From positions 7,587 to 71,586 of the forward strand of contig SUUT01000006.1 in the NCBI GenBank assembly GCA_015062385.1: a stretch of DNA of 64,000 bases, given 5' to 3'. Shown in pieces: positions 9,148 through 31,344 of the stretch. Source of the DNA: Alphaproteobacteria bacterium (GTDB taxonomy: Bacteria > Pseudomonadota > Alphaproteobacteria > CAAHEQ01 > UBA3637). The first letter of the stretch is position 1. Every line of letters begins with the position of its first letter. Below the pieces are notes generated by a model, which worked only from the letters and a program-made list of their open reading frames with translations, did no database searches and had not been told where the DNA came from. The translations under genes and the position numbers were made by a program.

Positions 9148-9154
9148 AGATATA

Positions 9155-12201: not shown

Positions 12202-12202
12202 C

Positions 12203-12343
12203 ATGAAAGACAGACTATTATTATTTTTAAAAACAAACAAAAAGAAAATGATAACATTTATCGTAACGGGTATTTTAGCGGCGTTAGGTGTAGTAGCCGA
12301 TACAACGGCGTTAACTGAGTTATTGTCCGTTATGATACCATAA
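12203..12343 (+). CDS. 46-aa single-TM protein (holin/antiholin/spanin-like), below the ORF-track cutoff
   Basis: The ATG lies 2 nt after the lysozyme stop, with aggag 8 nt upstream. The product is MKDRLLLFLKTNKKKMITFIVTGILAALGVVADTTALTELLSVMIP, with a basic N-terminus and one TM helix. Confidence 0.5.
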   Translation: MKDRLLLFLKTNKKKMITFIVTGILAALGVVADTTALTELLSVMIP

Positions 12344-12354
12344 AAGGAGTGAAA

Positions 12355-13011: not shown

Positions 13012-13022
13012 GGAGTTTTTTT

Positions 13023-14348: not shown

Positions 14349-14463
14349 TGGGAAAAGTAGGCTGAAAAAGCAGATAAAAGGGATGTGTTTCAGCAATAAT
14401 AAGGGTAGAACGATTTTTTATTAATGAAACACATCTAAAAGGGCAGAAAAAAATCTGCCCTTT
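14316..14463 (+). repeat. 148-bp perfect direct repeat, left copy (terL 3' end plus terminator)
   Basis: Base-for-base identical by eye to 16028-16175. It contains an 11-bp inverted repeat (gatgtgtttca ... tgaaacacatc) and the gggcaga/tctgccc terminator. Confidence 0.9.
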
Positions 14464-14486: not shown

Positions 14487-14551
14487 TTACTGCACCAAAA
14501 TAGCTTGTGCGGTTGCAGATGATACAGTCGGTGTCGCATAAAAAATAAGGC
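14487..14551 (-). pseudogene. relic 3' end of a pilin-like Cys-rich paralog
   Basis: The reverse strand reads ...FYATPTVSSATAQAILVQ*, against ...FYASIDVFSSTAQAILIQ* at the end of 16212..18341. An in-frame stop lies just upstream, so only about 20 codons survive. Confidence 0.6.
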
Positions 14552-16027: not shown

Positions 16028-16175
16028 TTTTGCGATAAAAGGGAAGGTGCTGGTTGGTAATGGGAAAAGTAGGCTGAAAAAGCAGATAAAAGGGATGTGT
16101 TTCAGCAATAATAAGGGTAGAACGATTTTTTATTAATGAAACACATCTAAAAGGGCAGAAAAAAATCTGCCCTTT
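16028..16175 (+). repeat. 148-bp perfect direct repeat, right copy (detached terL 3' fragment plus terminator)
   Basis: Identical to 14316-14463. Here it is not attached to any terminase ORF. Confidence 0.9.
16153..16175. terminator. bidirectional terminator (copy), serves the gene ending at 16212
   Basis: The same gggcaga/tctgccc hairpin. On the minus strand it is followed by tttt. Confidence 0.7.
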
Positions 16176-16211: not shown

Positions 16212-18341
16212 CTATTGTATCAAAATCGCTTGTGCGGTTGATGAGAATACATCTATTGATGCATAAAACGTATTGGCAGGTGCTAGATCTTTATTGGTAT
16301 TTACCTGTGCCAATACAACAAGTTGATTACCTTTTGGTTTTTGTAATGCCATTAATAAATGTTGCCCATGATTATCATAGCATCCGGTATCTTGATCATA
16401 ATGAACCGGTACAAAATTTGAAATAGTTGTATTTGTTAAGATTATCTGATTGTTTGTTACAGTTAAACGACCGCTCCATCTTGGACAGCTTCCTAATTGA
16501 ACACTTGTAGAAATATCTGCTTTTTGATTTGTTCCGATTAATTGCCATACACCGGTTGTAATTGTTGTCGGAAAAGTAAATATTAACGAATTTCCTTTGG
16601 TTAATGAATATGTTCCAACATGATTAGCAATATCTTCATAATATCCGCCTGTTTCAATCGAAACGGTTACGGCACACGCTTTATGTTCATCATTCCAAGT
16701 TGCCCCCTCCGGACACGTAATACACGTTCTGCCATTATCATGTGAACCGGTCGGACAAGTACATCCTGTTTGTGTGGCATTTATGATATACGGTGCTGTA
16801 CACGTTGCACAGGTTGTCCCTGTATCATATGTTCCTGTCGGACAGACACATTTATCGCCTTCACGAGTATAGGGGGCAAAGCACATCGGGCCCCAATCCC
16901 GACATAATGCGTAGTGCGGTCCACCATGATAATCCGTAGAAGAGCTTTGATGTGTATTAACTTTGTTTTGAGATAACCAGAAACAGGCTCGTTGACAAGT
17001 CATATTGCCACTCTGACTCCAAGGATTATAGGTAATCCACGGACCACTTGAATATCCGGCATTTATTAAATTGGTTGTAATTATCTTATATACTGAACTA
17101 TCATATCCGCTACATGTTTGGGCCTGATTGTCAATTGCTAGATTGTTTGTACATCCTAAATCAGGAACGGATACCATTTGTTTCCCCAAAGCTGTACAGA
17201 AGTTAATGGCTGATTCCCAACCTTTATTGCCGTCTCCATAATCTTTTTTAGAGAAATAAAAGTTGACACCGTTAATTTTGAAAGTGATGAAATCCAATTT
17301 TTCACAACGAGCATTGCTAAATGTTCCCGTTTCACAAATATTATCCCCCCGTGTACAGAAATAATTTGTATCATTATTGTACAGTTTATGACAATCATCA
17401 TTCGATTCGCATTCATTCGGCGAACATTCTTTACCATTCCAATACGGCGCAGAACTTGGACAGGCAATACATTCGTTTGTATTAACGGCAAAAACCGGTG
17501 TTGCATCCGGACATTTTTCACATTTGTCTGGATTTGTACTGTTCACATTATAAAATGGGCGTTCATCCGGACACGATTTGCAGGTATTATTTGATGTATC
17601 ACAGACAAGGTTCGGAATTTGACACGTACTGTCATCGATGCATTCAACACATTCTTCATTATGCCATACAGGTGTCATATCCGGACAACGACACGTTGTT
17701 TCATCTTCAAACCATTCTTTGGGCGGATAACACCGTTCGCAATTATCTCCAAATTCATATTCGTGACGACAAACACAACCATATGTACCATCTTCTTTTT
17801 GTCGCCATACCATTTTATCGGGGCAGGATTGCGGTTCAATATTTGGATTATCCGTTTCTGTTTCAGTGGTTCCGCCGAAATGACTGTCTGAATTAACAAC
17901 CGGAATTGCATTAAAAGAAAACACCATATTTGTTTTGCTGTTTGGATTTCCGCACGTTCTTGTTAAAATTGAAATACCCATATCATTCAATATACCTTCC
18001 TTTTGAAGGAGTTTTTCACAAACCTTATAAACCACTTTAAATGTCGTTACCTGATAATTACTATTAACCAACTTGACCATGGACTTTTTGTCATCAGGGA
18101 CATATTCGGAAAGTGCTGATTTAATAAACCGATTGACTTCCAATGCATGAGAAGCCCGAGAATCTGTTTGTGCCAATGTTTTGGCTTTTCCGAGAACATC
18201 CTGCACTTTGCCGGCTTGATAAGCCGTTAACGCATATTGGTAAGTAGCAACACCGGCAACAGATAATACACCGATAATTGCCAATACCCCTAGCATTTCC
18301 ACCATACTTCGTCCGGTTTCATTCAGTTTGATTTTAAACAT
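16212..18341 (-). CDS. type IV pilin-like N-terminus fused to Cys-rich ectodomain with lectin-like insert
   Basis: MFKIKLNETG|RSMVEMLGVLAIIGVLSVAG has a Gly, Glu at +5 and a hydrophobic helix. The RBS is gggaggag. It has dense C-x-x-C / C-x-C repeats, a W-x-S-A-x-x-F-C-x-x-x-G module, and a Cys-poor beta-rich C-terminal ~140 aa. Confidence 0.8.
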   Translation of the reverse strand: MFKIKLNETGRSMVEMLGVLAIIGVLSVAGVATYQYALTAYQAGKVQDVLGKAKTLAQTDSRASHALEVNRFIKSALSEYVPDDKKSMVKLVNSNYQVTTFKVVYKVCEKLLQKEGILNDMGISILTRTCGNPNSKTNMVFSFNAIPVVNSDSHFGGTTETETDNPNIEPQSCPDKMVWRQKEDGTYGCVCRHEYEFGDNCERCYPPKEWFEDETTCRCPDMTPVWHNEECVECIDDSTCQIPNLVCDTSNNTCKSCPDERPFYNVNSTNPDKCEKCPDATPVFAVNTNECIACPSSAPYWNGKECSPNECESNDDCHKLYNNDTNYFCTRGDNICETGTFSNARCEKLDFITFKINGVNFYFSKKDYGDGNKGWESAINFCTALGKQMVSVPDLGCTNNLAIDNQAQTCSGYDSSVYKIITTNLINAGYSSGPWITYNPWSQSGNMTCQRACFWLSQNKVNTHQSSSTDYHGGPHYALCRDWGPMCFAPYTREGDKCVCPTGTYDTGTTCATCTAPYIINATQTGCTCPTGSHDNGRTCITCPEGATWNDEHKACAVTVSIETGGYYEDIANHVGTYSLTKGNSLIFTFPTTITTGVWQLIGTNQKADISTSVQLGSCPRWSGRLTVTNNQIILTNTTISNFVPVHYDQDTGCYDNHGQHLLMALQKPKGNQLVVLAQVNTNKDLAPANTFYASIDVFSSTAQAILIQ

Positions 18342-18380
18342 TTGGCTCCTCCCTACAAAAAAACTACTACTTTATATTAT

Positions 18381-18536
18381 AAAAAAAGGTACCTTTTTTT
18401 CCCGCTTCGAATCGAAAGAATCGGATTTTTAAGAAAATGAAAAATTATTGTTTTTATTGAATTGGTTAGTTAAAATCAAAAAAAATGTCAAAATGTGAAA
18501 AAAATTGTTGCATTTATACGTACCTTTTTGTACAGA
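18381..18536 (-). promoter_or_regulatory. conserved upstream element, copy A
   Basis: This is the reverse complement of 27526-27678. It ends in the perfect palindrome aaaaaaaggtaccttttttt (18381-18400). It also contains an A8/T8 tract and the tctgtacaaaaaggtacgta box. Confidence 0.75.
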
Positions 18537-18743
18537 CATATATTTTTTATTATGGCATTCTTTTGAACCTGCCGTCTGTCCTGTTGAACTTGTTTCAACA
18601 TTGCGGATAGAATTGGAATGGATATTTTTTTACCATTATCGTAATGAACCGCTGAAACAAATTCAAGGTTGTTGCTTAAAAGTGTGATAAATAAATGACG
18701 AAAAACTAAAAAGAGGGAAGAATCAGCACAAATAATATGCTAT
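18381..18743. repeat. left arm of a ~360-bp inverted repeat (upstream element plus REP units 18571-18743)
   Basis: The reverse complement aligns with 27322-27678 with only scattered mismatches and small indels, by eye. Confidence 0.85.
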
Positions 18744-18961
18744 TTTACATAAAAACCCTAAAATAATGCAAGAATAAGGGGCAAAAGTGTAAAAATACAC
18801 AAAAAAATTAATCACTGTAATGCTAAAAAATATAAAGAATAAATCTGATTTAGAATAGAAACAAAAAAAATACAAAAAAATTTAATATATTTTTTATTTA
18901 AAGAAAAAAAATTATTTTTTTTTGAAAAAAATGCTTTATGTACTTGCATAATTAAAAATTT

Positions 18962-19231
18962 TAAGATACATTACCTTTCGTAAAGATGGCCAATCTTTAC
19001 AGGGATTTTGCGATCCGAGACTTATGTACAGAATTTGAACGAAAATTTATCACGTTCTATAAGTTTTATCAACTAAAGTTCTGTTGGCATCCTCTTACGA
19101 GAAGTAAAAAAAATACCTATCTCTGGGTGGATGCCTGCCTAATAAGGGGGACTCCCCAAATAAGCAGGGCTATTCTCACATAAGTCGTAGTTGCAAACAT
19201 CCACCCACCTTTTAACAGGTGGGTTGTTTTT
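18962..19231 (+). ncRNA. structured 5' leader or small RNA with competing antiterminator and terminator helices
   Basis: tgggtggatg (19124-19133) pairs with catccaccca (19198-19207), enclosing a nested hairpin (cctgc..ggggg-act-cccc..gcagg). The 3' strand overlaps terminator stem acccacct/aggtgggt (19203-19224), which is followed by tgttttt. An 8-bp hairpin gtaaagat-ggcca-atctttac lies near the 5' end. The 5' boundary is a guess based on a weak promoter-like ttgaaa...cataat at 18922-18952. Confidence 0.5.
19203..19231 (+). terminator. rho-independent terminator within the leader
   Basis: acccacct-tttaac-aggtgggt is followed by tgttttt, 31 nt before ATG 19262. Confidence 0.7.
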
Positions 19232-19261
19232 AGTGTTTAACCGTCAACCCATTCGTGTTCA

Positions 19262-19687
19262 ATGTATAAACAATGCTCTTTTTATGAATATGGTTTTCAA
19301 AAATTATCAATTCTTGAAAAACAACAGCTGATAAATATTATCAGTATGTTAATTATTAATTATGATGTAAATGCATTTTACATCAATCCACAGAATGAAT
19401 TTAATCTCGAAGCGGCATCAATTATTTGGAACATAAAAAAAGGTCTTCAAAATTATATTCAACTGGATCTTTTTCCCTTAAATACCGAAGCACACGATTC
19501 GGTATCAATTAAGCAACCATCTCAAATTCAGTATAAAGTTGTTTACGCTAATACCAAACATCACAGTACGTTTTACATTCAAAAAATACAAGACAATAAA
19601 ATTACTTTGTTACATTCAGCCGATATTTTTATTGAAACGGAAAATGATAAAATTATTTCCCGACAACGACATTCGTTATTACAATAA
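19262..19687 (+). CDS. hypothetical protein (141 aa)
   Basis: An ORF with no recognisable motif, first gene after the structured leader. Confidence 0.45.
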   Translation: MYKQCSFYEYGFQKLSILEKQQLINIISMLIINYDVNAFYINPQNEFNLEAASIIWNIKKGLQNYIQLDLFPLNTEAHDSVSIKQPSQIQYKVVYANTKHHSTFYIQKIQDNKITLLHSADIFIETENDKIISRQRHSLLQ

Positions 19688-19787
19688 TCTATCAGTAGCA
19701 ATGTGTTTTTTGTTGACATTTTTCGCAATATATGATACATATTTGCACATAAACATCAATTAAATGTGATAACAAAAGGGACAATGT

Positions 19788-20423
19788 ATGTCAAAATCGT
19801 TGCTTCAAAATCCGATTTTTCTTGAATCATTTCAAATTAACAACAATCGCCTTTCTTTTGTGTATGCCAATATGCCTGCACAAGAAATACTGCCTGTTAT
19901 GCCTGTTTTATTAGTTCGAGGACAAAAAACAGTTTCGCATCCTAATGAATTGACACGAATTGAAAAAATCGGATATACAACGTATGGACAAGTCCTCAAT
20001 TACTTAAATCAACACCAAGCTGACACGCCTGATTATCCCGAAAACAACAACGTGGAAAAATTTTTGATTCAAAAATCCATTGATGCCCATCAAAACAAAC
20101 ACATTACTTATTTATTGCCGATACAAGACATTCAACGGCATCCGTTAGGCGGAATGCTTTTTATAAAAACCCGCATGGCAGACGGCACAAAGCATACCCG
20201 TTTTGTCGGCACAGTCGGCATGATGAAATTCCAACTGTTAAAGCACAAAGCCATTCCGTTGGATAAAGCACCGTTATACCCGTTCAAAACAGATGAAAAA
20301 CCGATTATTCCGGATACATCATTTACATTTTCTAATTATCGGTTTGTTCCAATTACACCAAATTTAACAAGCGCCGTTAAATTAGCTCGTATCAGATATG
20401 CCTGTCAACATCAACCGGAATAA
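19788..20423 (+). CDS. hypothetical protein (211 aa)
   Basis: An ORF with an RBS (aaagggacaatgtatg). No family was recognised. Confidence 0.5.
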   Translation: MSKSLLQNPIFLESFQINNNRLSFVYANMPAQEILPVMPVLLVRGQKTVSHPNELTRIEKIGYTTYGQVLNYLNQHQADTPDYPENNNVEKFLIQKSIDAHQNKHITYLLPIQDIQRHPLGGMLFIKTRMADGTKHTRFVGTVGMMKFQLLKHKAIPLDKAPLYPFKTDEKPIIPDTSFTFSNYRFVPITPNLTSAVKLARIRYACQHQPE

Positions 20424-20428
20424 AAAAA

Positions 20429-20947
20429 ATGTCATTTAAAACAAACGATACTTTATGGGATACAGTCAAACGCTTTATTAGCGGTATTTTTTGGCAATTA
20501 CCATGGTTGAGTGCCGTTGGTGGTGGTTCGTGGTTTGTTAAACAAAATTTACAAACATATTTGGAAACTTATTTTGATTTATTTTTATATCAAAAAAACG
20601 CCATTGATTTACAAGAACGAACCGAAGCCGTTCAGGCAACATTATCCTTAACAAATCCGTTACGCTATGCCGATTACATCTCGGCACTATCGGCAAGTAC
20701 GTTTGCTTCTGCCAAAGCCTCAACAGTAGAACAAGCTATTCATTTAATCAGCGGATTGACAAACGGTATTTTATCCGTTGTTTGGGTTATTGCCTGTATT
20801 TATGCCGTTATTCGTGTGTTTAAACATGTCAACCAAAAAACAATGGAAAATGATATTGCTAATCAGGTTGTGGAAAAATTATTACCTATTTTGGAAGATA
20901 TTCAATATCAGTCTTATCAGGCAAACACGTCAAAAAAAGCAGAATAA
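20429..20947 (+). CDS. hypothetical membrane protein (172 aa, 2 TM)
   Basis: It starts 5 nt after the preceding stop. The TM helices are FISGIFWQLPWLSAVGGGSWFV and ILSVVWVIACIYAVIRVF. Confidence 0.5.
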   Translation: MSFKTNDTLWDTVKRFISGIFWQLPWLSAVGGGSWFVKQNLQTYLETYFDLFLYQKNAIDLQERTEAVQATLSLTNPLRYADYISALSASTFASAKASTVEQAIHLISGLTNGILSVVWVIACIYAVIRVFKHVNQKTMENDIANQVVEKLLPILEDIQYQSYQANTSKKAE

Positions 20948-21035
20948 AAATCTGATACCTTATCTCAAAGAATGGTATTTTAGCATTTAATGATACTTAT
21001 TATTGATTTTTTTACCGAGTTCTCATAGTAGAATT

Positions 21036-21590
21036 TCATTTATTCCACGGACATTTCATCAACATTTTTTCAATTTGATTTTGTCCCAAAATACCCTGTA
21101 TAATTAAAATAAAACCAATCATTACGGGCAATATTAAAAAAATCATACTCATTAAAAAACACAATACAAAACCTGTTAAAATAATAATGCCGACAATCAG
21201 GTCTTTTTGTTGTTGCATATTCCAGTAATGATGTTCAATCATTCGTAAACCACTTGTTTTTGCTTGTATAATACCACCGGTAAGAATGGCAACATTTGGA
21301 TAATCTGCCTCAATAAATTTTTGTGCCATTTGTCGTGATTTTTCACCTGTCGTACACAAAATATATAATGTTTTTGAACCATCTAAATGATATTGTCTTA
21401 TAAATTCTTTGGGATTAACATCATCAGCTTCAACATGCCAGTGTGGATATTTTAAAGCTATTTTGGAATGACGGATATGAGAACGAATATCTAAAATCAA
21501 ATCAGTTTCTTTTAATTGACGAGCATCTATTTGTTTGATTTTAGTCCGATTGAGTTCTGAATTTTTAAATGTTTTTAAATTTTTTATCAC
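21036..21590 (-). CDS. membrane-anchored rhodanese-domain protein (YgaP-like)
   Basis: The rhodanese fold has the active-site loop LCTTGEKS. The C-terminal pair of TM helices (LIVGIIILTGFVLCFLMSMIFLILPVMIGFILII) matches the architecture of E. coli YgaP. Confidence 0.7.
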   Translation of the reverse strand: MIKNLKTFKNSELNRTKIKQIDARQLKETDLILDIRSHIRHSKIALKYPHWHVEADDVNPKEFIRQYHLDGSKTLYILCTTGEKSRQMAQKFIEADYPNVAILTGGIIQAKTSGLRMIEHHYWNMQQQKDLIVGIIILTGFVLCFLMSMIFLILPVMIGFILIIQGILGQNQIEKMLMKCPWNK

Positions 21591-21679
21591 AACGCCCCCA
21601 TTCTGATATTATAAATAATCTGTACATTATGAATGTCAATCCAACCAAAAGCATCATCAACAATCAAAAATTTTGTATT

Positions 21680-21843
21680 TCTGTAAAAAAAGGGACGTAT
21701 AATTGCAACACTTTTTTTCACTTTTTAGCATTTTTTTTGATTTTAACTAACTTATTAAACTAAAAGAATAATCTTTCATTTTTGCCGAAAGTTGATTTTC
21801 CCGATTCGAATAGGGAAAAAAAGGTCCCTTTTTGTATACACAA
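21680..21843 (+). promoter_or_regulatory. conserved upstream element, copy D (most diverged)
   Basis: tctgtaaaaaaagggacgtataattgcaacactttttttcac...T8...gattttaactaa...gattcgaatagggaaaaaaaggtcccttttt is collinear with copies A-C. The palindrome is degraded to ggtccc. Confidence 0.65.
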
Positions 21844-21873
21844 TTAGTGTACAACCAAACACATGGAGGAAAT

Positions 21874-22242
21874 ATGAAAAAAATACTATTATTAGCAACT
21901 CTTTCTATCATCTTGCCAAGTATAGCATGGGGAGCCTGTGAAGGTGGAGAAGAATTTACCGGTAAAAATGGTCATGTATATTGTAAAAGCAATCAATATA
22001 TGAATTGGTGGAGTGCTTTTGCTTGGTGCAAAGCAAACGGTCGTCATTTAGTGACTTTGGATGAAGCATGCAATAATAATTCTTGGATAAACGGTTGTCC
22101 AAATATTTTTTTAGACGTAGATCGGTTTGGTTGGACTTCAATCGCATCAGGGGATCAACACGCCTATCGTGTTCATTTTAAATATGCCACTGTTAGCACA
22201 GCAGGGAGAGCTGGCGAGTACTGTACTGCTCTTTGCTATTAA
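21874..22242 (+). CDS. small secreted Cys-rich lectin-like protein
   Basis: The start is taken at ATG 21874, behind ggagga. It has a Sec signal (MKKILLLATLSIILPSIAWG|A). NWWSAFAWCKANGRHLVTLDEAC ... EYCTALC parallels GWESAINFCTALGKQMVSVPDLGC ... HYALC in 16212..18341. Confidence 0.6.
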   Translation: MKKILLLATLSIILPSIAWGACEGGEEFTGKNGHVYCKSNQYMNWWSAFAWCKANGRHLVTLDEACNNNSWINGCPNIFLDVDRFGWTSIASGDQHAYRVHFKYATVSTAGRAGEYCTALCY

Positions 22243-22346
22243 ATTTGTCTGAAAATGTTATTTTAATTAATGAGTGATAATTAATTGAATTGAATCCGTT
22301 TTTAATGACTGTATAAATTTTTCTTAATAAATAGATGACCCTAATA

Positions 22347-22380
22347 TAAAAAAACGCCGATATAAATCAGCGTTTTTTTA
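22347..22380. terminator. bidirectional terminator between convergent genes
   Basis: aaaaaaacgc-cgatataaatca-gcgttttttt. Confidence 0.7.
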
Positions 22381-22431
22381 TTACGTAAAAAGACAAATGA
22401 CACATTGTTTCTGTGTCGCCCCCTAAAAGGT

Positions 22432-23208
22432 TTAATCATCCATATATTTACGGCCGGATTTCCAGTAATCATAACCGGTCATAACCGTTAAAATAGCAGC
22501 CCCCCATAAGGCTAACTGTCCAACATAATAAAACACATCAGAAAATTGTCCGCTGACCCCCGGTTCGGAAACCATTAACATCGGCAAGGCACACATTTGA
22601 CAGGCTGTTTTCCATTTTGCTAAACGAGTGACCGGACAACCGACTTTAATTTCTGCCAAAAATTCACGCAGACCGGAAACCAAAATTTCACGGCACAAAA
22701 TAATAACTGCCGGAATAATACCGTAATCGCCTAAACGTGCCGTAAATGCCAACATCAACAAAATAGCCCCGACAAGCAATTTATCGGCAATCGGATCTAA
22801 CACCCGACCAAAACGGGACAACTGATTTAAATGTCTTGCCAAATAGCCGTCCATATAATCACTAATACCGGCTAAACCAAACAAAACAACGCCTATCCAA
22901 GCCGCAGTCGGTTTATCAAAAAAGAATGTTGCGACAATAGCCGGAATGGCCCAAATGCGAAACAATGTCAACATGTTGGGAATATTAACCTGTTTATGTA
23001 CCTTTTTTAAGGTATCAATTGTTTGCGTTGCTTTTTCTTGAATCATTTCTTTTACATCACTCGGGGCAGAAATAACGACTTCTTCCGTTGTGGACGATTC
23101 GGAAACACCTTGGGTTTCGCTTTGAATTTCTTCCGATATTTCCTGCACTTCTTTTGTATTGTTTTTTAAGACTTTTTTATCTTCTTTTGTTATTTTTTTG
23201 TCTGCCAT
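22432..23208 (-). CDS. pgsA: CDP-diacylglycerol--glycerol-3-phosphate 3-phosphatidyltransferase with acidic N-terminal extension
   Basis: It has the CDP-alcohol phosphatidyltransferase motif DYMDGYLARHLNQLSRFGRVLDPIADK and multiple TM helices. About 70 extra E/K/S-rich residues sit at the N-terminus. Confidence 0.85.
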   Translation of the reverse strand: MADKKITKEDKKVLKNNTKEVQEISEEIQSETQGVSESSTTEEVVISAPSDVKEMIQEKATQTIDTLKKVHKQVNIPNMLTLFRIWAIPAIVATFFFDKPTAAWIGVVLFGLAGISDYMDGYLARHLNQLSRFGRVLDPIADKLLVGAILLMLAFTARLGDYGIIPAVIILCREILVSGLREFLAEIKVGCPVTRLAKWKTACQMCALPMLMVSEPGVSGQFSDVFYYVGQLALWGAAILTVMTGYDYWKSGRKYMDD

Positions 23209-23256
23209 TTTTTATCCTCTCACCCTAATAAAATTACGCTCTTTTATCTTTATAAC

Positions 23257-25083
23257 TCAATCATGATAAAATGTATAGACTTTTTTTGCAATTTTTTCAC
23301 TTATTCCTTCAACACGCTGAATTTGTTCCAAAGAAGCCCCCGCAATTGCCTTAGGAGAACCAAAATGTCGCAATAATGCTTTTTTTCTTTTTTCCCCGAT
23401 TCCTTCAATATCCAATATGGTTTCATGAAACATATTTTTTGCCCGTTTCATTCGGTGCGTTCCAATAGCAAATCGATGGGCTTCATCTCTTAACCGCTGA
23501 ATTAAATGAATTAAATCACTTTTTAAATCTAAATGAATGGGGGTATTCGGATTACTGCCGTGAAAAAGCGTTTCTTTACCGGCATTACGTTGTTCCCCTT
23601 TGGCAACAGCCAACAAGGCGATTGAATGAATACCCAATTCGTCCATCATTGCCTGAACGGCAGACAGTTGTCCTTTTCCACCGTCAATCAACATGGCAGT
23701 CGGTAAATCTTTTTCAACTACACCCCGAGATAATCGCCGATACATAACTTCTTTCATCATACCGAAATCATCATTTGTTTTAGCCCGTGAGCCGTCAATA
23801 TTATACCGCCGATACCATTTTTTTTGAAAACCGTCCTGATTGGCGGCAATCATGGCACCGACAGCTGCTGTTCCCTGAATATGACTGTTATCATAGACTT
23901 CCACCTTTTCCAAAATGGGAACATTTAACAACTGCCTTAATTCTTCCCATACCTGTGCTTTAATTTCTTTTTCGTTTTGTGTTTGTTTAAAAGAACGTTT
24001 TGCGTTTTCAAGTGCTTGCTCCATTAATTTTTTACGAGTTCCTTTAAACGGCCCTGTTCCGATGTGAACAGTATAACCGGCTTTTTGAGAAAGAGCCTCA
24101 GCCAATCCGTTTTCGGGTAAAATGGATAAATAAATTTGTCGGGGAGCCGGAATCTTGTCATACACTTGCATCAGATATGAGGATAAAACCTCATTTAAGT
24201 TGTCATTATTTATATCTTGAAAAAACTGAATTAAATTACCTTCCGCTCGACCCGTTCGATATAAAAACACCTGAATACACCCTTTTCCGTTTTCGGTATA
24301 AACGGCAACAATATCCGTTTGTTTTAAAGGCGTAGCGGAATCCGTATCCTGAATATGATTTAACGCCAATATCTTATCCCGAACGACAGCCGCTTCCTCA
24401 TAGCGAAAATCAGCCGCCAATTCATCCATCTGTTGTTGCAGAACCTTTTGAATACCGACATGTTCGCCCCTCATAAATGCTTTTGCATTTTGAACGCTTT
24501 TTTCATAATCTGCCGATGATATACATTGACAACACGGACCGGAACACCGTTTAATTTGGTAAAGCAGACACGGTCGAGAACGATTTTTGTAATAGGTGTT
24601 ATTACAGGTACGCAATCCGAATATTTTTTGTAGCTCTTTAATGGTTTGATTAACCGCCAAAACAGATGAAAACGGACCAAAATATGTTCCCTTTATCCGT
24701 CTTTCTCCTCGATATTTCAACAAACGAGCAGGCGTTTCATCCGTTAACACAATATACGGATAACTTTTATCATCCTTCAAAAGAATATTGTAAAATGGCT
24801 TATATTGCTTAATTAAATCATTTTCCAACAAAAATGCTTCCGTTTCACCGGCGGTTTCAATCACAATCAAATCGGCAACCTGCGAAACCATTTGACGGAT
24901 ACGATTAGATAACCGTTCCGTTTGAGTATAATTTGTCAGTCTGTTTTTTAAATTTTTGGCTTTGCCGACATACAAAACCGTGCCGGTCTCGTCTATCATC
25001 CGATAAACACCGGCTTTGTGTGAAACATACTTAATTTTTTGGCGTAATATATCAACGCCTTGTAATTTGTTTTCAGTACCCAT
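23257..25083 (-). CDS. uvrC: excinuclease ABC subunit C
   Basis: It has an N-terminal GIY-YIG domain (GVYRMIDETGTVLYVGKAKNLKNRL), a UVR domain, an endonuclease V-like domain and a C-terminal (HhH)2. Confidence 0.95.
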   Translation of the reverse strand: MGTENKLQGVDILRQKIKYVSHKAGVYRMIDETGTVLYVGKAKNLKNRLTNYTQTERLSNRIRQMVSQVADLIVIETAGETEAFLLENDLIKQYKPFYNILLKDDKSYPYIVLTDETPARLLKYRGERRIKGTYFGPFSSVLAVNQTIKELQKIFGLRTCNNTYYKNRSRPCLLYQIKRCSGPCCQCISSADYEKSVQNAKAFMRGEHVGIQKVLQQQMDELAADFRYEEAAVVRDKILALNHIQDTDSATPLKQTDIVAVYTENGKGCIQVFLYRTGRAEGNLIQFFQDINNDNLNEVLSSYLMQVYDKIPAPRQIYLSILPENGLAEALSQKAGYTVHIGTGPFKGTRKKLMEQALENAKRSFKQTQNEKEIKAQVWEELRQLLNVPILEKVEVYDNSHIQGTAAVGAMIAANQDGFQKKWYRRYNIDGSRAKTNDDFGMMKEVMYRRLSRGVVEKDLPTAMLIDGGKGQLSAVQAMMDELGIHSIALLAVAKGEQRNAGKETLFHGSNPNTPIHLDLKSDLIHLIQRLRDEAHRFAIGTHRMKRAKNMFHETILDIEGIGEKRKKALLRHFGSPKAIAGASLEQIQRVEGISEKIAKKVYTFYHD

Positions 25084-25209
25084 ACCTTAATAATATGGCA
25101 TTTATCGTAAAAATCAATTATTATTCTTTAAAAATTAAAAAAAAGTAATTTGTTTAACATCTGTTAATTATTTATATTGTATAAATGTAAAATATATAGA
25201 GGGGATTTT

Positions 25210-27111
25210 ATGCGTTATTTAATGAGTTTGGCTTTGTGTTTTATTTTGTTTTGTGCCTGTGAGGCACAAGCCGTTGTTTCAACCTTAGTTGCTGACACAA
25301 AAAGCGGAACAATTTTATCTTCTAAAAATGCACAAAGAAAACAATATCCGGCATCACTAACAAAAGTAATGACTCTATATTTAACATTTAATGCCTTAGA
25401 TAAAGGGTTGTTAAAAATGGATGATAAACTGCCGATTTCTTTACATGCGGCAAAACAACCCCGCTCAAAAATGTTTTTAAAAGCCGGCGATACAATTCGG
25501 GTTAAAGATGCCGTTATGGCATTGATAATTAAATCGGCAAACGATGCTGCCGTTGTTTTGGCGGAAGCACTGGCCCCATCTGAAAAAGAATTTGCCAAAA
25601 TGATGACGCAAACTGCACATCAACTGGGGTTAAAAAACACACAATTCAGAAATGCATCCGGTTTGCACAATCCCGAACAGGTCACAACGGCAGAAGATAT
25701 GGCTTTATTGACAATCGCTCTGATTAATCATTATCCTGAATATTACAAATTGTTTTCAAAGGGAAAATTTTGGTATAGGGGAAAAGAATATCGATCACAC
25801 AATCAGGTAACACGTTCATATTCAGGGGCCGAAGGATTAAAAACAGGTTATATTGCCGCAGTCGGTTATAACATTATTTCAACAGCAAAACGCAATAATG
25901 ACCGATTGGTAACGGTTGTTATCGGACATAACACATCCAAATCACGGGACAAACAAGCGGTTCGTTTATTGGATAAAGGATTTTCTTTGATGAAAAAATC
26001 CCGTTCTGTTTTAAAAAAATTGTGTGCACAAGGTAAATATCGCACGTTAAATTATGCACAAGCATCACGCAAACCAAACCTAACAGCACAATTAAAAACC
26101 ATGGAAAAAAGATTGGCGTATACCCGCCAAACGGTAACAAATGTACAAAAAGAACGCTTATTGGCCTTACAAAAAACCGGTGTTTTGGATAGATTAACCG
26201 TTTCAAAAGCAATGAGAGAAACAATAGAACAAGGCGATAGCAATCTTGGAACTGCTACCGTATCAAATGAAACAGATTCAAATACATCCATTGAAAAAAG
26301 TTTGGCTTTATCTCCGACCATATCGGATGAGATACGGGCAGAACTGGCTGACAACATAACGGAGCAAACCGCACTTTTGACAGAAAATGAACAAGCAAAT
26401 TTACCAATGGCAACATTTACGCCTGTTTATGGTTGGAAATTAGATGAAAATACAACTGATGAAATCACACATATCTATATCTCGGCAAATCATACACCGA
26501 TTGATTTAAACAGATATCCGCTGTCGGTTGTGCAAAATCAACTACAAACAATGGATAACATATCAAACGAAGAGACAAGTGCTGTTGTCTTACAAACAAA
26601 AGAAACGGAAAAGCCCTCAGAAACAATCATTGCATTACAAGAAATAGAAACAAGCGATAAATTCTCCTCTTTGTCGTCAGAAGCCATTGAACAACCCTCC
26701 AAAACAGTTCAAGTTACCGGTTTAATGCCGATTGCACCAACGCAAACAGAAACCGAAAAGGAGATATCAACAAATAAGACAATAACAAAACCTCAACCGA
26801 TAATATCAGCACAAACACAGCAAAATAAATCTGTTAAAAAAGAAAGAAAAAGCGTTCAAACAGCTCAATTACGCAAAAAAGGATGGGGGGTACAGGTAGG
26901 GGCTTTTTATGAAAAATCACAGGCACAAAAACAAGCTCAAAAAGCCTTAAAATCCATTTCTAAAAAAGGGAAGAAAATAGCTGTTTCACCCAACAAAAAA
27001 GAAACGATATATCGTTCCCGCATTTATGGATTTCAATCCAAAAAAGAAGCCCAGCAAGCTTGTCGTGTATTAAAACGCTCACAAAATATGAATTGTTTGC
27101 CTGTTTTATAG
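25210..27111 (+). CDS. D-alanyl-D-alanine carboxypeptidase (S11) with long linker and C-terminal SPOR domain
   Basis: The start is taken at ATG 25210 with a signal peptide. It has SLTKVMT (SxxK), SANDAA (SxN) and KTGY (KTG) motifs. The C-terminal WGVQVGAFYEKSQAQKQAQ...YRSRIYGFQSKKEAQQACRVLK fits a SPOR domain. Confidence 0.85.
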   Translation: MRYLMSLALCFILFCACEAQAVVSTLVADTKSGTILSSKNAQRKQYPASLTKVMTLYLTFNALDKGLLKMDDKLPISLHAAKQPRSKMFLKAGDTIRVKDAVMALIIKSANDAAVVLAEALAPSEKEFAKMMTQTAHQLGLKNTQFRNASGLHNPEQVTTAEDMALLTIALINHYPEYYKLFSKGKFWYRGKEYRSHNQVTRSYSGAEGLKTGYIAAVGYNIISTAKRNNDRLVTVVIGHNTSKSRDKQAVRLLDKGFSLMKKSRSVLKKLCAQGKYRTLNYAQASRKPNLTAQLKTMEKRLAYTRQTVTNVQKERLLALQKTGVLDRLTVSKAMRETIEQGDSNLGTATVSNETDSNTSIEKSLALSPTISDEIRAELADNITEQTALLTENEQANLPMATFTPVYGWKLDENTTDEITHIYISANHTPIDLNRYPLSVVQNQLQTMDNISNEETSAVVLQTKETEKPSETIIALQEIETSDKFSSLSSEAIEQPSKTVQVTGLMPIAPTQTETEKEISTNKTITKPQPIISAQTQQNKSVKKERKSVQTAQLRKKGWGVQVGAFYEKSQAQKQAQKALKSISKKGKKIAVSPNKKETIYRSRIYGFQSKKEAQQACRVLKRSQNMNCLPVL

Positions 27112-27270
27112 ATAAACTATTCATTTGATTATGTTGTATATCCTAATCATACTGATTTTATTTTAAAAACAATCTTTGTATTTAAATCAGATTAATGTGA
27201 TAAATTCAGAATAATCAGAATATTACGTGTGGTTTCAGCAATATAACATGATAGCAAATGTAAAGATTTA

Positions 27271-27490
27271 TCATCATTTTGGAAAAATGCGAAAGATTTT
27301 ATTCAAAATCTTATGACAACAATAGCATATTATTTGTGCCGTTTCTATCCTTTTTTTAGTTTTTCGTCATTTATTATATCACACTTTTAAGTAACAACCT
27401 TGAATTTGTTTCAGCGGTTCATCACGATAATGGTAAAAAAATATCCGTTCCAATTCTATCCGCAATGTTGAAACAAGTTCAACAGGACGG
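27271..27490. repeat. two tandem REP/MITE-like units
   Basis: Collinear with 860-1048 (tcatcattttggaaaaatg..., ...gttgaaacaagttcaacaggacgg). The part from 27322 onward also forms the inverted repeat with 18571-18743. Confidence 0.8.
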
Positions 27491-27678
27491 CGGGTTCAAA
27501 AGAATGCCATAATAAAAAATATATGTCTGTACAAAAAGGTACGTATAAATGCAACAATTTTTTTCACATTTTGACATTTTTTTTGATTTTAACTAACCAA
27601 TTCAATAAAAACAATAATTTTTCATTTTCTTAAAAATCCGATTCTTTCGATTCGAAGCGGGAAAAAAAGGTACCTTTT
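27322..27678. repeat. right arm of the ~360-bp inverted repeat
   Basis: See 18381-18743. Confidence 0.85.
27526..27678 (+). promoter_or_regulatory. conserved upstream element, copy B
   Basis: tctgtacaaaaaggtacgtataaatgcaacaatttttttcacattttgaca-T8-gattttaactaacc...cgattcgaagcgggaaaaaaaggtacctttt. Confidence 0.75.
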
Positions 27679-27726
27679 ATTACACTCACTTTATAAATGC
27701 AACTTTATAATTGTGAGGGTAAGATT

Positions 27727-30700
27727 ATGCGAATCAAACTGAATGAACATGGACGAAGTATGGTAGAAATTCTTGGTGTGTTGGTTGTTATTGGCATATT
27801 GTCTATTGGGGGTATGGTTGGATATGAATATGCCTATTCGGCATATCAAGTACATAAAATTCAGGATGTTTTGCTAAAAGCAAAAGCACAGACAGACACC
27901 AAACGTCGAAATTCCCGAGTGACAAGCATTAATCGTTTTGTTAAAAGTACATTAAGCGAATATGCTCCGGATGATAATACACCAATGGTTTCTTTTGAAG
28001 AAAATGTTCATTATGTCGATTTATACAAAGTATCGGATGTTATATGTAAAATGTTGTTTGAGCGACAAGAGTCATTGAGCCGAGTCGATATTTATCTAAT
28101 AAAACCTAACAGTATCGAAAATTGTACCAATCAAGAAAATCGTTTAGTGTATTCATTTGACAAAGTTGTTGATACAGATGACACGTCAACCTCCGATTGG
28201 ACTGATGAACCACTGAATTCTGATATTCCCGACTGTGAATATCCCCGTCAGATAATAGATGGGATTTGTACTTGTGCCTCTCCGACAATATGGAGTGATG
28301 TATATAACGATTGTATTTGTGATGAAGAAAATTATGCTGATATGTGTGCTGCTTGTCCGTTGCCTCGTAAATGGGTTTCCGGAGAATGTGTTTGTGCCGA
28401 TTCGGATAAGGTTTGGGATGAAGAAAATAACGCTTGTGTTTGTAAAGATGAAAATGCAGAAGAAGATGCATCCGGTAAGTGTATTCTTTGTGAATCTCCG
28501 AATACATACGACCCAATTGAAGATAAATGTGTTTGTATAGAACCGGAATGTGTATGCGAAACACCTCGTCAGATTATAGATAACGAATGTAAATGTTCAG
28601 ATAATCAAAAATATTTAGAAAGTGAAAATATTTGTGTTGAATGTCGTCACAATAATGATTGTATGGATGAGTACTATTGTGATGAAAATCATACCTGTCA
28701 ATTGTTGAATTGTGATGAAATGGGTTTTCCGATACGGTCCTTTTATTGCAGTTATGTGGATTTTGACAGTAATGCCGGTTATACCCCGTGGATGTATGTA
28801 AATAAGTATTATCAAACGGGGAGGGGAAATTGGACACTTGTATCTGGTTGCCAAAATTCTGTTTTGATTGTTCCAAAAGATTTTAAAGGTAATGTTTCTT
28901 TGGGTTCTTGTCGAGTTGGATGGGTTATTATTGACGGACAAAAATATTCATTAAATTCAAGCAAAACAACAGAGATTGATATTAAAAAAGGGAAATATTC
29001 CATTACATTCGGAACATCTCGTAATAAAGGTCGGGAAGGATGTAATATTAATTTCCATAGAAAACTCGGATGGGATATCTGTATGGCAAAGCAAAATAAT
29101 TGTCCTGCCGGATTTTATTGCCAACCTGACAGTCATAAAACAACTATTTGTCCAGTGGGGCATTATTGTCCCCAAAATTCATTTTTAGGGCCTACGCAAT
29201 GTCCGGTCGGAACATATAATCCTGAGGAAGGAAAATCGGCAAAAAGCGATTGTATGACGTGTTCATTAGGTAATTATTGTGCCAAAGGTTCTATTAATCA
29301 AACTCCTTGTCCGGCAGGATATTATTGTACATCAGCTTCTAAACAGACAGCATGTCCGAAAGGAACGTACAATCCGGATACGGGTAAAACGGCAAAATCT
29401 GATTGTATTGTCTGCTCGGAAACATCTTATTGTCCGGCGGGATCTGTACAGGAAATTACGTGTCCCGCAGGATATTATTGTACAGAAACAGCTCAAACAG
29501 CTTGTCCTGCAGGAACGTATAATCCGAATGAGGGCGCAACCGATAAGAGTGCCTGCTTAAAATGCGAATCCGGTCATTATTGCCCGAAAGCTTCCGTTAC
29601 CCAAACAATCTGCCCAAAAGGTCATTATTGTTCTTTGACAACAGCAACGGCTTGTGGGGCAGGTAAATATAACAATTTAGAAGGACAAACAAGTAGTAAG
29701 GCTTGTTTAGCTTGTCCGGCAGGTTCCTATTGTCCAAAAGCATCGGCTGAACCGATAATTTGTCCGAAAGGATATTATTGTTTGGCAAGTAAAGGGGCAG
29801 CAACTGTTTGTCCGAGCGGAACTTATACTGTTGGCGAAGGGGCAACGGCAAAAACAGATTGTATTGCTTGTACAACTGGTATGTATTGTGCAACGGGTGA
29901 AAGCGGAGATTGTCCGGCAGGATATTATTGTCCGACCCCCAAGACAAAAACAGCATGTCCGGTTGGTACTTACAACCCAACACCCGGAGCAACAAGCAAA
30001 GATGCTTGTATTGCATGTGATGACGGTATGTATTGTGCCAAAGGTTCTACCGAACAAACGCCTTGTCCGGCGGGGTATTATTGTACATCTCCTTCAACAA
30101 AAACGGCATGTCCGGCCGGAAAATACAATCCGAATGAACAGGCAACCAGTAAAACAGATTGTATTGCTTGTACAAGCGGATATTATTGTTTAAAAGGGGC
30201 TATTGAACAAACACTGTGTTCTATAGGGTGTTATTGTTCATTAACAAAAGAAACTATATGTTCTGCCGGAACTTACAACTTAAAAACGGGACAAAGCAGT
30301 TCTTCTGCTTGTTTGGCTTGTCCGGTCGGAATGTATTGTCCAACAACAACCAAAGAACCGATTACTTGTCCGGAAGGGTATTATTGTCCGGCAAAATCAG
30401 CGACGGCAAAAGCATGTGCAAGTGGTTATTTTAGTGATGTTGGTGCAAAAGTCTGTACAAAATGTTTAGCGGGGTCTTATTGTCCTGATGGTAAGAACTC
30501 AACAATAAAAACGTGTCCAATCGGGCATTATTGTGCTGCCGGATGTACTTCTCCGGTAAAGTGTGCAGAGGGGTATTATAACGGACAAACAGGACAATCG
30601 GCTTGTACAAAGTGTCCGGCCGGTTCATACTGCTCGGGAACGGGAAATACGCAAACAACGGTTTGTCCGGCGGGGGCATATTGTCCGGCAGGAGCAACTG

Positions 30701-31344
30701 CACCGACATTGTGTGCCGCCGGAAAATACAATCCGAATACAGGCGGAACGGCAAGCACGGCTTGTAAAACATGTCCGGCCGGTTCCTATTGTCCGACAGC
30801 GGGAACAGTGACTCCTATAACTTGTAAAGCCGGAACTTATTGTGTTGCCGGAGCAACGGCAGAAAAAGTATGTGCTGCCGGATATTACAATGGGCAAACA
30901 GGACAATCGGTTTGTACAAAGTGTCCGGCTGGTTCATACTGCTCGGGAACAGGCAATACACAAATGACTGTTTGTCCGGCGGGGGCATATTGTCCGGCAG
31001 GAGCAACTGCACCGACATTGTGTGCCGCCGGAAAATACAATTCGAATACAGGCGGAACGGCAAGCACGGCTTGTTTAAAGTGTCCTGCTGGTTCATACTG
31101 CTCGGGAACGGGAAATACGCAAACAACGGTTTGTCCGGCGGGGGCATATTGTCCGGCAGGAGCAACTGCACCGACATTGTGTGCCGCCGGAAAATACAAT
31201 CCGAATACAGGCGGAACGGCAAGCACAGCTTGTTTAAAGTGTCCTGCTGGGTCTTATTGTGGGAAAGGAACTATAACGCCGATTGCTTGTCCGGATGGAA
31301 AAACATCAGTTGCCGGTTCGGATGCTTTAAGCGATTGTAAATAA
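27727..31344 (+). CDS. type IV pilin-like N-terminus fused to giant ephrin-receptor-like/GCC2_GCC3-like Cys-repeat protein (1205 aa)
   Basis: The start is taken at ATG 27727 (RBS gagggtaagatt). The N-terminus is MRIKLNEHG|RSMVEILGVLVVIGILSIGG. About 14 units of ~50 aa follow, with CPxGxYC ... CPxGTYNPxxGxxxxxxCxxCxxGxYC. Confidence 0.85.
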   Translation: MRIKLNEHGRSMVEILGVLVVIGILSIGGMVGYEYAYSAYQVHKIQDVLLKAKAQTDTKRRNSRVTSINRFVKSTLSEYAPDDNTPMVSFEENVHYVDLYKVSDVICKMLFERQESLSRVDIYLIKPNSIENCTNQENRLVYSFDKVVDTDDTSTSDWTDEPLNSDIPDCEYPRQIIDGICTCASPTIWSDVYNDCICDEENYADMCAACPLPRKWVSGECVCADSDKVWDEENNACVCKDENAEEDASGKCILCESPNTYDPIEDKCVCIEPECVCETPRQIIDNECKCSDNQKYLESENICVECRHNNDCMDEYYCDENHTCQLLNCDEMGFPIRSFYCSYVDFDSNAGYTPWMYVNKYYQTGRGNWTLVSGCQNSVLIVPKDFKGNVSLGSCRVGWVIIDGQKYSLNSSKTTEIDIKKGKYSITFGTSRNKGREGCNINFHRKLGWDICMAKQNNCPAGFYCQPDSHKTTICPVGHYCPQNSFLGPTQCPVGTYNPEEGKSAKSDCMTCSLGNYCAKGSINQTPCPAGYYCTSASKQTACPKGTYNPDTGKTAKSDCIVCSETSYCPAGSVQEITCPAGYYCTETAQTACPAGTYNPNEGATDKSACLKCESGHYCPKASVTQTICPKGHYCSLTTATACGAGKYNNLEGQTSSKACLACPAGSYCPKASAEPIICPKGYYCLASKGAATVCPSGTYTVGEGATAKTDCIACTTGMYCATGESGDCPAGYYCPTPKTKTACPVGTYNPTPGATSKDACIACDDGMYCAKGSTEQTPCPAGYYCTSPSTKTACPAGKYNPNEQATSKTDCIACTSGYYCLKGAIEQTLCSIGCYCSLTKETICSAGTYNLKTGQSSSSACLACPVGMYCPTTTKEPITCPEGYYCPAKSATAKACASGYFSDVGAKVCTKCLAGSYCPDGKNSTIKTCPIGHYCAAGCTSPVKCAEGYYNGQTGQSACTKCPAGSYCSGTGNTQTTVCPAGAYCPAGATAPTLCAAGKYNPNTGGTASTACKTCPAGSYCPTAGTVTPITCKAGTYCVAGATAEKVCAAGYYNGQTGQSVCTKCPAGSYCSGTGNTQMTVCPAGAYCPAGATAPTLCAAGKYNSNTGGTASTACLKCPAGSYCSGTGNTQTTVCPAGAYCPAGATAPTLCAAGKYNPNTGGTASTACLKCPAGSYCGKGTITPIACPDGKTSVAGSDALSDCK
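30571..31233 (+). repeat. near-identical in-frame intragenic repeats
   Basis: 156-bp units at 30610-30765, 30919-31074 and 31078-31233 encode KCPAGSYCSGTGNTQ(T/M)TVCPAGAYCPAGATAPTLCAAGKYN(P/S)NTGGTASTAC and differ at only a few bases. 30571-30765 is repeated at 30880-31074. Confidence 0.9.

Follow-up and report, generated by a model that had tools for sequence, protein, structure and literature searches.

To date, the best-documented cases of surface variation by DNA inversion come from Bacteroides and mycoplasmas. The fimS switch of E. coli is a single 314-bp locus with 9-bp inverted repeats, a promoter inside, and the FimB and FimE genes adjacent to it. In Bacteroides, a gut commensal, many dispersed promoters carry common inverted repeats, are inverted by recombinases whose genes lie elsewhere, and undergo extensive secondary inversions between sites; the promoters lie wholly within segments of about 170-230 bp, and their cargo is mostly polysaccharide operons and SusC/D-like proteins. 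The recombinases that invert the Bacteroides promoters act globally (PMC2268961). The mpl (P35) family of Mycoplasma penetrans comprises 38 surface-lipoprotein genes in several clusters, each with its own invertible promoter (PMC2268961, PMC10502178), and Xer-like tyrosine recombinases encoded near the mpl genes are candidates for the inversion (PMC2268961). Inverton catalogues compiled with PhaseFinder and DeepInverton describe inverted repeats around an invertible promoter, enriched near surface-structure genes, in gut bacteria (PMC11602134, PMC11892184).

Here, we describe a family of short repeated elements upstream of pilin-like, cysteine-rich (Cys-rich) genes in uncultured Alphaproteobacteria. 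Each copy is very probably an inverton, in which a 127-bp segment is flipped in place by a site-specific recombinase. The closest known system is M. penetrans mpl, followed by the multi-locus promoter inversions of Bacteroides. Like the elements described here, mpl combines a large surface-protein family with one private switch per gene, and its invertible element is of similar size. The two systems differ in their hosts (a mollicute as opposed to an alphaproteobacterium), their cargo (lipoproteins as opposed to pilin-like Cys-rich proteins), and their sequences, which are unrelated. In addition, the -10 hexamer of the present elements appears to be fixed outside the flipped segment, beyond the 9-bp core of the repeat.

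Dispersed promoters with common inverted repeats, a gut host, and inversions between sites are shared with Bacteroides, whereas the repeat sequences are different, the segment is 127 bp long, and the cargo is pilin-like. The resemblance to fimS lies in a short invertible segment with 9-bp repeats that controls a fimbrial or pilus subunit gene, but the present family extends over more than 30 loci, uses a 127-bp segment without an adjacent recombinase, and probably relies on a split promoter. The definition used in the inverton catalogues also covers these switches, and single instances may be included there without description. A literature search found no description of this family or of invertons at pilin-like Cys-rich genes in Alphaproteobacteria. 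The type of mechanism is already known and the family is new, with another lineage, other cargo, and unrelated sequences; the split promoter may be a further difference.

Four copies of the element in the window

The window, by which we mean the whole 64,000-nucleotide stretch of DNA analysed, contains four collinear copies of an element of about 155 bp, at the positions that a previous sequence-only reading had assigned to them. The two most conserved blocks of the element each have four matches in the window at three or fewer mismatches and none in 100 shuffles, and an nhmmer profile built from all copies finds only 18376-18537 (minus strand), 21680-21842 (plus strand), 27525-27690 (plus strand), and 48600-48762 (plus strand) in the window. 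We refer to these as the 18-kb, 21-kb, 27-kb, and 48-kb switches.

In the 27-kb switch, the left inverted repeat, which faces away from the gene, occupies 27528-27542 (plus strand; TGTACAAAAAGGTAC) and is complementary to the right inverted repeat on the gene side at 27670-27684 (plus strand; GTACCTTTTATTACA). The 9-bp core of the left repeat lies at 27534-27542 (plus strand; AAAAGGTAC). The invertible 127-bp segment at 27543-27669 (plus strand) is in the majority orientation, which is proposed to be OFF. Inside the segment, a -35-like TTGCAT on the minus strand (27549-27554) adjoins the left repeat and is followed by T-tracts at 27557-27563, 27568-27571, and 27577-27584. The fixed -10-like TACACT (27681-27686, plus strand) lies past the 9-bp core, within the extended repeat. 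The downstream gene (27727-31344, plus strand) encodes a 1205-aa pilin-like protein (MRIKLNEHGRSMVEILGVL...) with many CxxC and GTYNP Cys-rich repeats.

The 18-kb switch lies on the minus strand (18376-18534), with the left repeat at 18520-18534, the segment at 18393-18519, the right repeat at 18378-18392, a -10-like TATAAT at 18376-18381, and a -35-like hexamer at 18508-18513. Its gene (16212-18341, minus strand) encodes a 709-aa pilin-like Cys-rich protein. The 21-kb switch (21682-21840, plus strand) is of the GGGAC/GTCCC type and consists of a left repeat at 21682-21696, a segment at 21697-21823, a right repeat at 21824-21838, and the fixed hexamer TATACA at 21835-21840 (plus strand); its gene (21874-22242, plus strand) encodes a 122-aa Cys-rich protein that has a classical signal peptide and is not pilin-like. 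In the 48-kb switch (48603-48761, plus strand), the left repeat (48603-48617), segment (48618-48744), and right repeat (48745-48759) are accompanied by a -10-like TATAAT at 48756-48761 (plus strand), upstream of a gene (48799-50019, plus strand) for a 406-aa pilin-like protein with teneurin/laminin-type EGF repeats. An identical copy of the 48-kb switch, in equal orientation, is present on a JGI contig.

All four copies precede Cys-rich genes, and the earlier view of the element as a regulatory device associated with a secreted, Cys-rich gene family is supported. The -10-like hexamer that had been placed at a constant offset is found there in four of four copies (TATAAT at 18 kb, TATACA at 21 kb, TACACT at 27 kb, and TATAAT at 48 kb), with a distance of 33-40 nt between hexamer and start codon. 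Over 197 nt, the 18-kb and 27-kb copies share 99% identity. They belong to a more extensive inverted repeat (18166-18744 and 27321-27899; about 580 bp), which corrects the sequence-only reading.

Architecture of the inverted repeat

The element had originally been defined by a terminal A7-GGTACC-T7 palindrome. A perfect 20-bp palindrome (aaaaaaaggtaccttttttt) is indeed present in the 18-kb and 48-kb copies, but it is shorter in the 27-kb copy, broken (GGTCCC) in the 21-kb copy, and broken in 24 of the 32 copies in the alignment, and thus it is not the hallmark of the element. Complementarity between the two ends is kept instead, including in the 21-kb copy. The conserved feature is a long-range inverted repeat, AAAAGG(G/T)AC ... 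GT(C/A)CCTTTT, whose 9-bp core is part of a longer match of 15-19 bp. Two main types occur, AAAAGGGAC ... GTCCCTTTT (type 1) and AAAAGGTAC ... GTACCTTTT (type 2), and locus L009 has a third matched state, AGTAC ... GTACT.

In the alignment of 32 copies, virtually every cell of the 9-bp core is paired, and the variable repeat position co-varies between the arms (G/C in 24 copies, T/A in eight, broken in none). Pairing between the element ends is found in 87% of cells, compared with 38-59% when the partner columns are slid. The interior between the cores measures 127 bp in 25 of 28 measured copies and 126 bp in one, with 151-bp variants reported as three. The co-variation of the repeat arms may reflect just two or three evolutionary events.

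In the right-hand block of the element (CGATTCGAAGCGGG), a direct repeat of TCCGATT precedes the near-palindrome CGATTCGAAGCG, and GGGA7GG comes last; the block may be an operator for a dedicated regulator. The stretch from GATTCGAA to GGGAAAAAAAGG owes some of its invariance to the pattern with which the copies were collected. The four T-tracts of the left half start 9-11 bp apart, and the spacing of T/A-tracts gives a Fourier peak at 9.5 bp that is marginally above random placement.

A structured 5' UTR had been offered as another candidate for the role of the element. Rfam returned nothing on the whole window at the gathering score and nothing on the element at E<=1, and the element occurs in both orientations relative to its gene. 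RNAalifold, applied to the 32 copies, gives no internal helix, just the repeat stem and trivial helices of 2-3 bp, and so a structured RNA was rejected. A scan for tRNAs and tmRNA found none. For the leader region that separates the -10-like hexamer from the ribosome-binding site, no hairpin is predicted by RNAalifold. A hand-drawn leader helix, which lies outside the element, is 78% paired compared with 39-56% in slid controls and shows a few compensatory pairs, for moderate support.

Copy number and placement

The sequence-only reading had suggested searching for further copies, and these were found. The right-hand block, searched against 185,579 species-representative genomes, returned 28 copies, all in a single metagenome-assembled genome (MAG), Alphaproteobacteria bacterium RGIG7750 from water-buffalo rectum; a profile search of the RGIG7750 loci raises the count to at least 31. 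Three further copies lie in GCA_017435925 (the third MAG) and others on JGI and ENA contigs, and a metagenome scan by element pattern yielded one true copy and three chance matches.

The placement of these copies is non-random, in line with the earlier view that the element is linked to its genes. Most adjoin pilin-like Cys-rich genes at a fixed distance, nearly all lying 33-50 nt upstream of them, and in most the pilin motif is found 71-80 nt past the right repeat. This placement bears on a further possibility, a miniature inverted-repeat transposable element (MITE) that landed beside these genes facing one way or the other, which the terminal inverted repeats, length of about 155 bp, and many copies per genome bring to mind. 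The fixed start-codon distance to one gene family, and hence the non-random position, speaks against insertion of this kind, as do the flanks outside the repeats, which are conserved and asymmetric, and the occurrence of one locus in both orientations with identical flanks. Target-site duplications were looked for beside the repeats, and none were found. We therefore regard a MITE as extremely unlikely.

Evidence that the segment inverts

At two loci, L005 and L019, the pilin motif lies beyond the left repeat, at 70 and 76 nt, and on the other strand. The genes at these loci are intact and pilin-like (470 and 693 aa). Relative to the interior, the flanks have traded places, GTCCCTTTTATTACAC/G... 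being typical of the gene side and ...TATCTGTAA... of the far side, and the inversions are precise, with a reverse-complemented interior between the repeat cores and untouched flanks. A third copy, L018, also appears flipped, on a contig that ends at that copy. In total, two to three of about 31 copies in RGIG7750 are flipped, compared with none of the four in the window.

The gene P0121 provides both orientations at a single locus. It is the closest relative of the L005 gene (93% identity) and is found on three Logan contigs that share an identical P0121, an identical leader, and a common downstream neighbour and that derive from three runs within a single SRA accession series. Two of these contigs (L037 and L038) begin with GGGAAAAAAAGG joined to TCCCTTTTATTACAG, and the other (L039) begins with TTGTTGCAATAATACG joined to TCCCTTTTATTACAG. 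These are the two junctions predicted for an inversion of the interior by crossover inside the repeat core, and the junctions of the flipped contigs fall inside the gene-side repeat. In L005, which comes from an independent assembly, the entire flipped element is present at the gene orthologous to P0121. We infer that an assembly artefact at P0121 is unlikely because the repeat, at 19 nt or less, is shorter than usual assembly k-mers. The two P0121 junctions, together with the flipped L005 element, therefore point to a family of invertible switches, very probably of promoters (invertons).

Ten other assemblies of the window's 16-31-kb region show the 18-kb, 21-kb, and 27-kb switches oriented as they are in the window, and the 48-kb locus is matched by one further contig; thus, no switching was seen at the window's own loci. 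This uniformity of three loci is what would be expected if the element were a static upstream region, either promoter plus operator or 5' UTR, that was duplicated along with paralogous genes, the flips being rare fossil rearrangements. The element is always found with paralogous genes and could have spread with them, and the near-palindrome of the right-hand block could serve as an operator. However, P0121 is found in both orientations within one SRA series, an independent MAG carries its orthologue in the flipped state, the flips run precisely from repeat core to repeat core with intact flanks, and the repeat arms co-vary. Nor does the element have the Rfam match or internal RNA helix of a conserved leader. 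A static region consequently seems very unlikely.

The sequence-only reading had also raised phase variation through slippage of the homopolymer tracts. Phase variation does appear to be involved, given both orientations at P0121, but its mechanism is inversion of the segment rather than slippage. Several homopolymers of 7-8 nt are present, and length changes in T8, T7, or A7 could in principle vary expression; across ten assemblies of the same loci, tract lengths are constant except for a single A7/A8 difference in the far-side repeat of the 21-kb copy. The T8 and A7 lengths are also equal in nearly all 32 copies, and in the present orientation the tracts do not lie between -35 and -10. Slipped-strand variation is accordingly a most improbable explanation.

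A putative promoter split across the repeat

The hexamer following the gene-side repeat behaves as a real -10, as had been suggested from the four window copies. Of 30 copies in the majority orientation, 29 carry A at position 2 of the gene-side hexamer and 29 carry T at position 6, whereas T occupies position 6 of the far-side mirror hexamer in 1 of 30. The TAnAnT pattern is thus specific to the gene side, where both flipped copies have it as well. This asymmetry is unlike what recombinase binding to a symmetric repeat would produce, and fits a -10 fixed beside the gene.

At the other end of the element, the hexamer adjoining the left repeat reads TTGCAn on the opposite strand in 31 of 32 copies. 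When the segment is inverted in silico, the spacer between this hexamer and the fixed hexamer is 17 bp in 32 of 32 copies, and the 18-kb copy becomes TTGCAT-17 bp-TATAAT. In the majority orientation, the -35 position is occupied by CGGGAA (two of six matches). Flipping would also turn the T7, T5, and T8 tracts into A-tracts at about -39 to -45, -49 to -53, and -58 to -65. These positions are those of the UP-element subsites of sigma-70 promoters, the UP element being an A/T-rich booster upstream of some -35 hexamers. A pilin paralogue that has no switch is preceded by TTGTCA-17-TATAAT, 35 nt before the ATG, and therefore the organism appears to use such promoters at such a distance. A simple promoter scan, with a background of about 1.7 chance sites per 320 nt in AT-rich DNA, scored TTGCAA + TACACT at 8 of 12, below threshold, and called neither this candidate promoter nor the one considered below.

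From these sequence patterns, we think it probable that the promoter is split across the gene-side repeat, with the window orientation OFF and the flipped orientation ON. The -10 (TAnAnT) would be fixed in the leader, and the -35 (TTGCAn), together with a UP-like A-tract region, would be carried at the far end of the invertible segment. Inversion would bring the -35 next to the -10 across a 17-bp spacer containing the repeat core, giving the ON state, while the orientation of the four window copies, with CGGGAA at the -35 position, would be OFF. This assignment of states also fits the tally of orientations, in which few copies of the MAG and none in the window are flipped. Most family members would then be silent and few expressed at once, resulting in phase and antigenic variation of surface pilin-like proteins.

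A different arrangement would place a whole promoter (TTGACA-17-TAAnnn) inside the segment, firing toward its GATTCGAA end, so that the window orientation is ON and the rare flipped orientation is OFF. Such a promoter would match known invertons, since fimS and the Bacteroides PS loci have the promoter inside the invertible segment. Reviews describe the same position for the promoters of the M. penetrans mpl invertons (PMC2268961). The candidate combines a -35-like hexamer (mean of 4.3 of 6 matches) with TAAnnn at a constant 17-bp spacer and is directed toward the gene in the majority orientation. It is weaker than the split promoter because its -35 coincides with those columns of the left half that are conserved least and the critical T at position 6 of its -10 is present in just 15 of 32 copies. 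An internal promoter would also leave the gene-side TAnAnT and the exact 17-bp geometry after flipping unexplained, and would imply that some 90% of the genes in the family, which numbers more than 30, are ON simultaneously. We consider this arrangement unlikely, although it deserves consideration.

A sigma-54 promoter, as found for many pilin genes, would draw its GG from the left repeat and its TTGCA from just inside the segment. The sequence AGG(G/T)ACGTATAATTGCA resembles TGGCACG-N4-TTGCW and is directed toward the gene in the majority orientation. The separation between GG and GC, however, is 11 nt in all aligned copies compared with an invariant 10 in the consensus, and about 368 kb of related loci, which cover part of the genome and hence give weak evidence, contain no RpoN-box protein. 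We judge sigma-54 control of these genes to be very improbable.

Cargo proteins

Three of the window genes (at 18, 27, and 48 kb) encode a prepilin-like N-terminus, KLNExGRSMVEMLGVL..., followed by Cys-rich repeats of the EGF/ephrin-receptor-like kind. The visible prepilin motif is G/RSMVE(+5)MLGVLAIIGVLS, also written KLNExG/RSMVEMLGVLAIIGVLS, in which the Glu is at +5. Matches to the Pfam N_methyl family (E=0.012-0.04, below the cut-off) were obtained for the paralogues at 18 kb and 48 kb, and none for the 27-kb protein; the NCBIfam prepilin-dependent pilin model gives E=0.08. PulG, PilE, or FimT are named in the sources as distant homologues of the pilin-like proteins. For the repeats, the 27-kb protein has a match to Ephrin_rec_like below threshold, and the 48-kb protein matches EGF_Teneurin at E=1.2e-9. 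No Pfam family was found for the 122-aa protein of the 21-kb switch. The most likely role of the switches is to vary the expression of a large family of Cys-rich surface proteins, putatively pilin-like, in an uncultured gut alphaproteobacterium.

Relatives of the 18-kb gene (83-94% identity) in the third MAG, GCA_017435925, likewise have an upstream switch. The internal DNA repeats of the 27-kb gene fall into families D2, D4, D6, D9, and D10. The Cys-rich repeats of the pilin-like proteins recall those in the variant surface proteins of Giardia.

Recombinase search and implications

A Pfam scan of 40 window proteins, drawn from outside about 32.6-38.8 kb and 60.5-63.8 kb, found no recombinase. 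A motif scan and tblastn with Hin, FimB, and XerD queries found no switch recombinase in the window and part of the related loci. The single recombinase gene in about 368 kb of related loci is XerC/D-like and lies beside priA at locus L020; it may be a housekeeping enzyme, although in mycoplasmas enzymes of the Xer type do operate switches like these (PMC2268961).

We tentatively hypothesize, with rather less confidence than we attach to the individual switches, that in a gut alphaproteobacterium with a small genome these elements form a genome-wide system in which a few surface proteins are expressed at a time. More than 30 private split-promoter switches would each control a large pilin-like protein, a global recombinase, perhaps of an undescribed type, would be encoded elsewhere, and the switch sites would also drive large inversions and reshuffling of the switches themselves.

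If true, uncultured gut and rumen Alphaproteobacteria vary a very large repertoire of pilin-like Cys-rich proteins by DNA inversion, which would suggest that immune, phage, or adhesion pressure on such proteins is strong. The consensus of repeat and interior is a precise probe, with which ON and OFF counts could be obtained per locus in existing metagenomes and the recombinase sought via co-occurrence. If the promoter is split as proposed, the switch would also be a compact design, a 127-bp cassette carrying only a -35 and UP module, and as such relevant both to how invertible switches are understood and to their engineering.

Rearrangements between switches

The 18-kb and 27-kb switches delimit an 8.6-kb segment (18745-27320) that is bounded by the long inverted repeats at 18166-18744 and 27321-27899 and contains uvrC, a D-Ala-D-Ala carboxypeptidase gene (dacA-like), the 21-kb switch, and other genes. 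The repeat pairs that bound it are I1, I4, I5, and I7. In four contigs (L040, L043, L044, and L045), the segment is arranged as in the window, with the carboxypeptidase gene adjoining the 27-kb gene. In three others (L041, L046, and L047), it is inverted: the carboxypeptidase gene adjoins the 18-kb gene, and orf141 (a 141-aa ORF at 19262-19687) is followed by the 27-kb gene with mreB. In L041, the single junction that was read base by base, the variants that distinguish the repeat types remain on the gene side, and therefore the crossover took place at the inner edge of the long repeat. The 8.6-kb inversion may be one old event that separates strains.

Recombination between switch repeats, or between the longer homologous repeats around them, would appear to generate both large inversions and chimeric switches. 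The switches help to explain why assemblies of these genomes frequently break off at these loci or close to them. The switch beside orf141 in L042 combines a flipped interior with flanks of the far-side kind at either end and adjoins another region of the genome, while L007 and L022b have leader-like flanks on both sides. We infer that these three loci are reciprocal products of recombination between the repeats of two different switches.

Large-Scale Rearrangement at the Switches

The 18-kb and 27-kb copies of the switch, the proposed invertible promoter element ahead of the pilin-like Cys-rich genes, enclose an 8.6-kb segment (window 18745-27320) bounded by long inverted repeats at window 18166-18744 and 27321-27899. 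The segment carries uvrC, a dacA-like carboxypeptidase gene, a CDP-alcohol phosphatidyltransferase gene and the 21-kb switch. Both of its orientations occur among metagenome assemblies, the window-like one in four and the inverted one in three. The crossover of this inversion seems to be located at the long repeat's inner edge, a placement taken from locus L041 only, the sole junction checked base by base.

Chimeric switches were also observed. The copy at L042 9100-9290 has two flanks of the type found at the far side, away from the gene, together with a flipped interior, and it forms a junction between the part of the genome on the 141-aa ORF side (window 19262-19687) and an unrelated one that contains a HIT-family gene and glycosyltransferases. 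The opposite arrangement, in which both flanks resemble the gene-side leader, is seen in L007 and L022 (329-492).

Switch Variants and a Possible Leader Hairpin

A variant switch with a 151-bp interior, instead of the usual 127 bp, was found at L009 1747-1927, L015 4106-4290 and L020 5614-5797. Both repeat ends, the -35-like TTGCAA block and the -10-like TACACT hexamer are retained, while the middle has diverged; the variant has a long leader (~150 nt), which includes a GC hairpin (ggcggaaaaccgcc), and is followed by a gene for a small pilin-like protein of 186 aa. In the copy at L054 1300-1470, a C replaces the G just before the right repeat (AAAAACGTCCC), so that the perfect inverted repeat grows inward to 14 bp (AAAAAAAGGGACGT / ACGTCCCTTTTTTT).

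The leader at window 27687-27726 and its equivalents elsewhere hold, after the -10-like hexamer and before the ribosome-binding site, an AT-rich palindrome, or hairpin, with 78% pairing compared with 39-56% in slid controls. RNAalifold returned no prediction for this leader hairpin. The 3' arm and the ribosome-binding site overlap, and the loop is often TGCAAC, a motif also found beside the left repeat.

Contig Breaks and Neighboring Sequence

Contig boundaries in several assemblies fall inside a switch or 30-270 nt from one (the starts of L037, L038 and L039, and the ends of L001, L003, L007, L010, L012, L016-L020 and L022). Such breaks are expected because the sequence is repeated and possibly heterogeneous, and they lead to fragmented MAGs in this lineage. 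Downstream of another switch-controlled gene, L050 and L051 differ at ~9400-11200 by a ~1.8-kb indel of small ORFs. L051 also encodes, at 12840-13917 and ~5 kb from the switch-controlled gene, a 561-aa DUF6538/Phage_integrase protein, probably a mobile-element integrase.

Many 150-153-nt DNA repeats, encoding CPxGxYC…GTYNP units, occur within the 1205-aa pilin-like gene (window 29250-31311). The L041 orthologue of this gene encodes 1049 aa, indicating that repeat number differs among strains.

Window 1-14400 is a prophage-like region with an SU10-type adaptor (3914-4639), a phage lysozyme (11776-12201), a large terminase (13023-14348), three tandem 154-aa ORFs of 90-93% DNA identity (1811-3177), and a duplicated block of ~450 bp (1074-1526 and 6179-6632). 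Two 148-bp direct repeats, 100% identical (window 14316-14463 and 16028-16175), bracket a minus-strand Fic/DOC-family gene (14693-15817), and window 14488-14543 holds a degenerate duplicate of the 18-kb pilin-like gene's 3' end. The arrangement has the appearance of a recent duplication or insertion.
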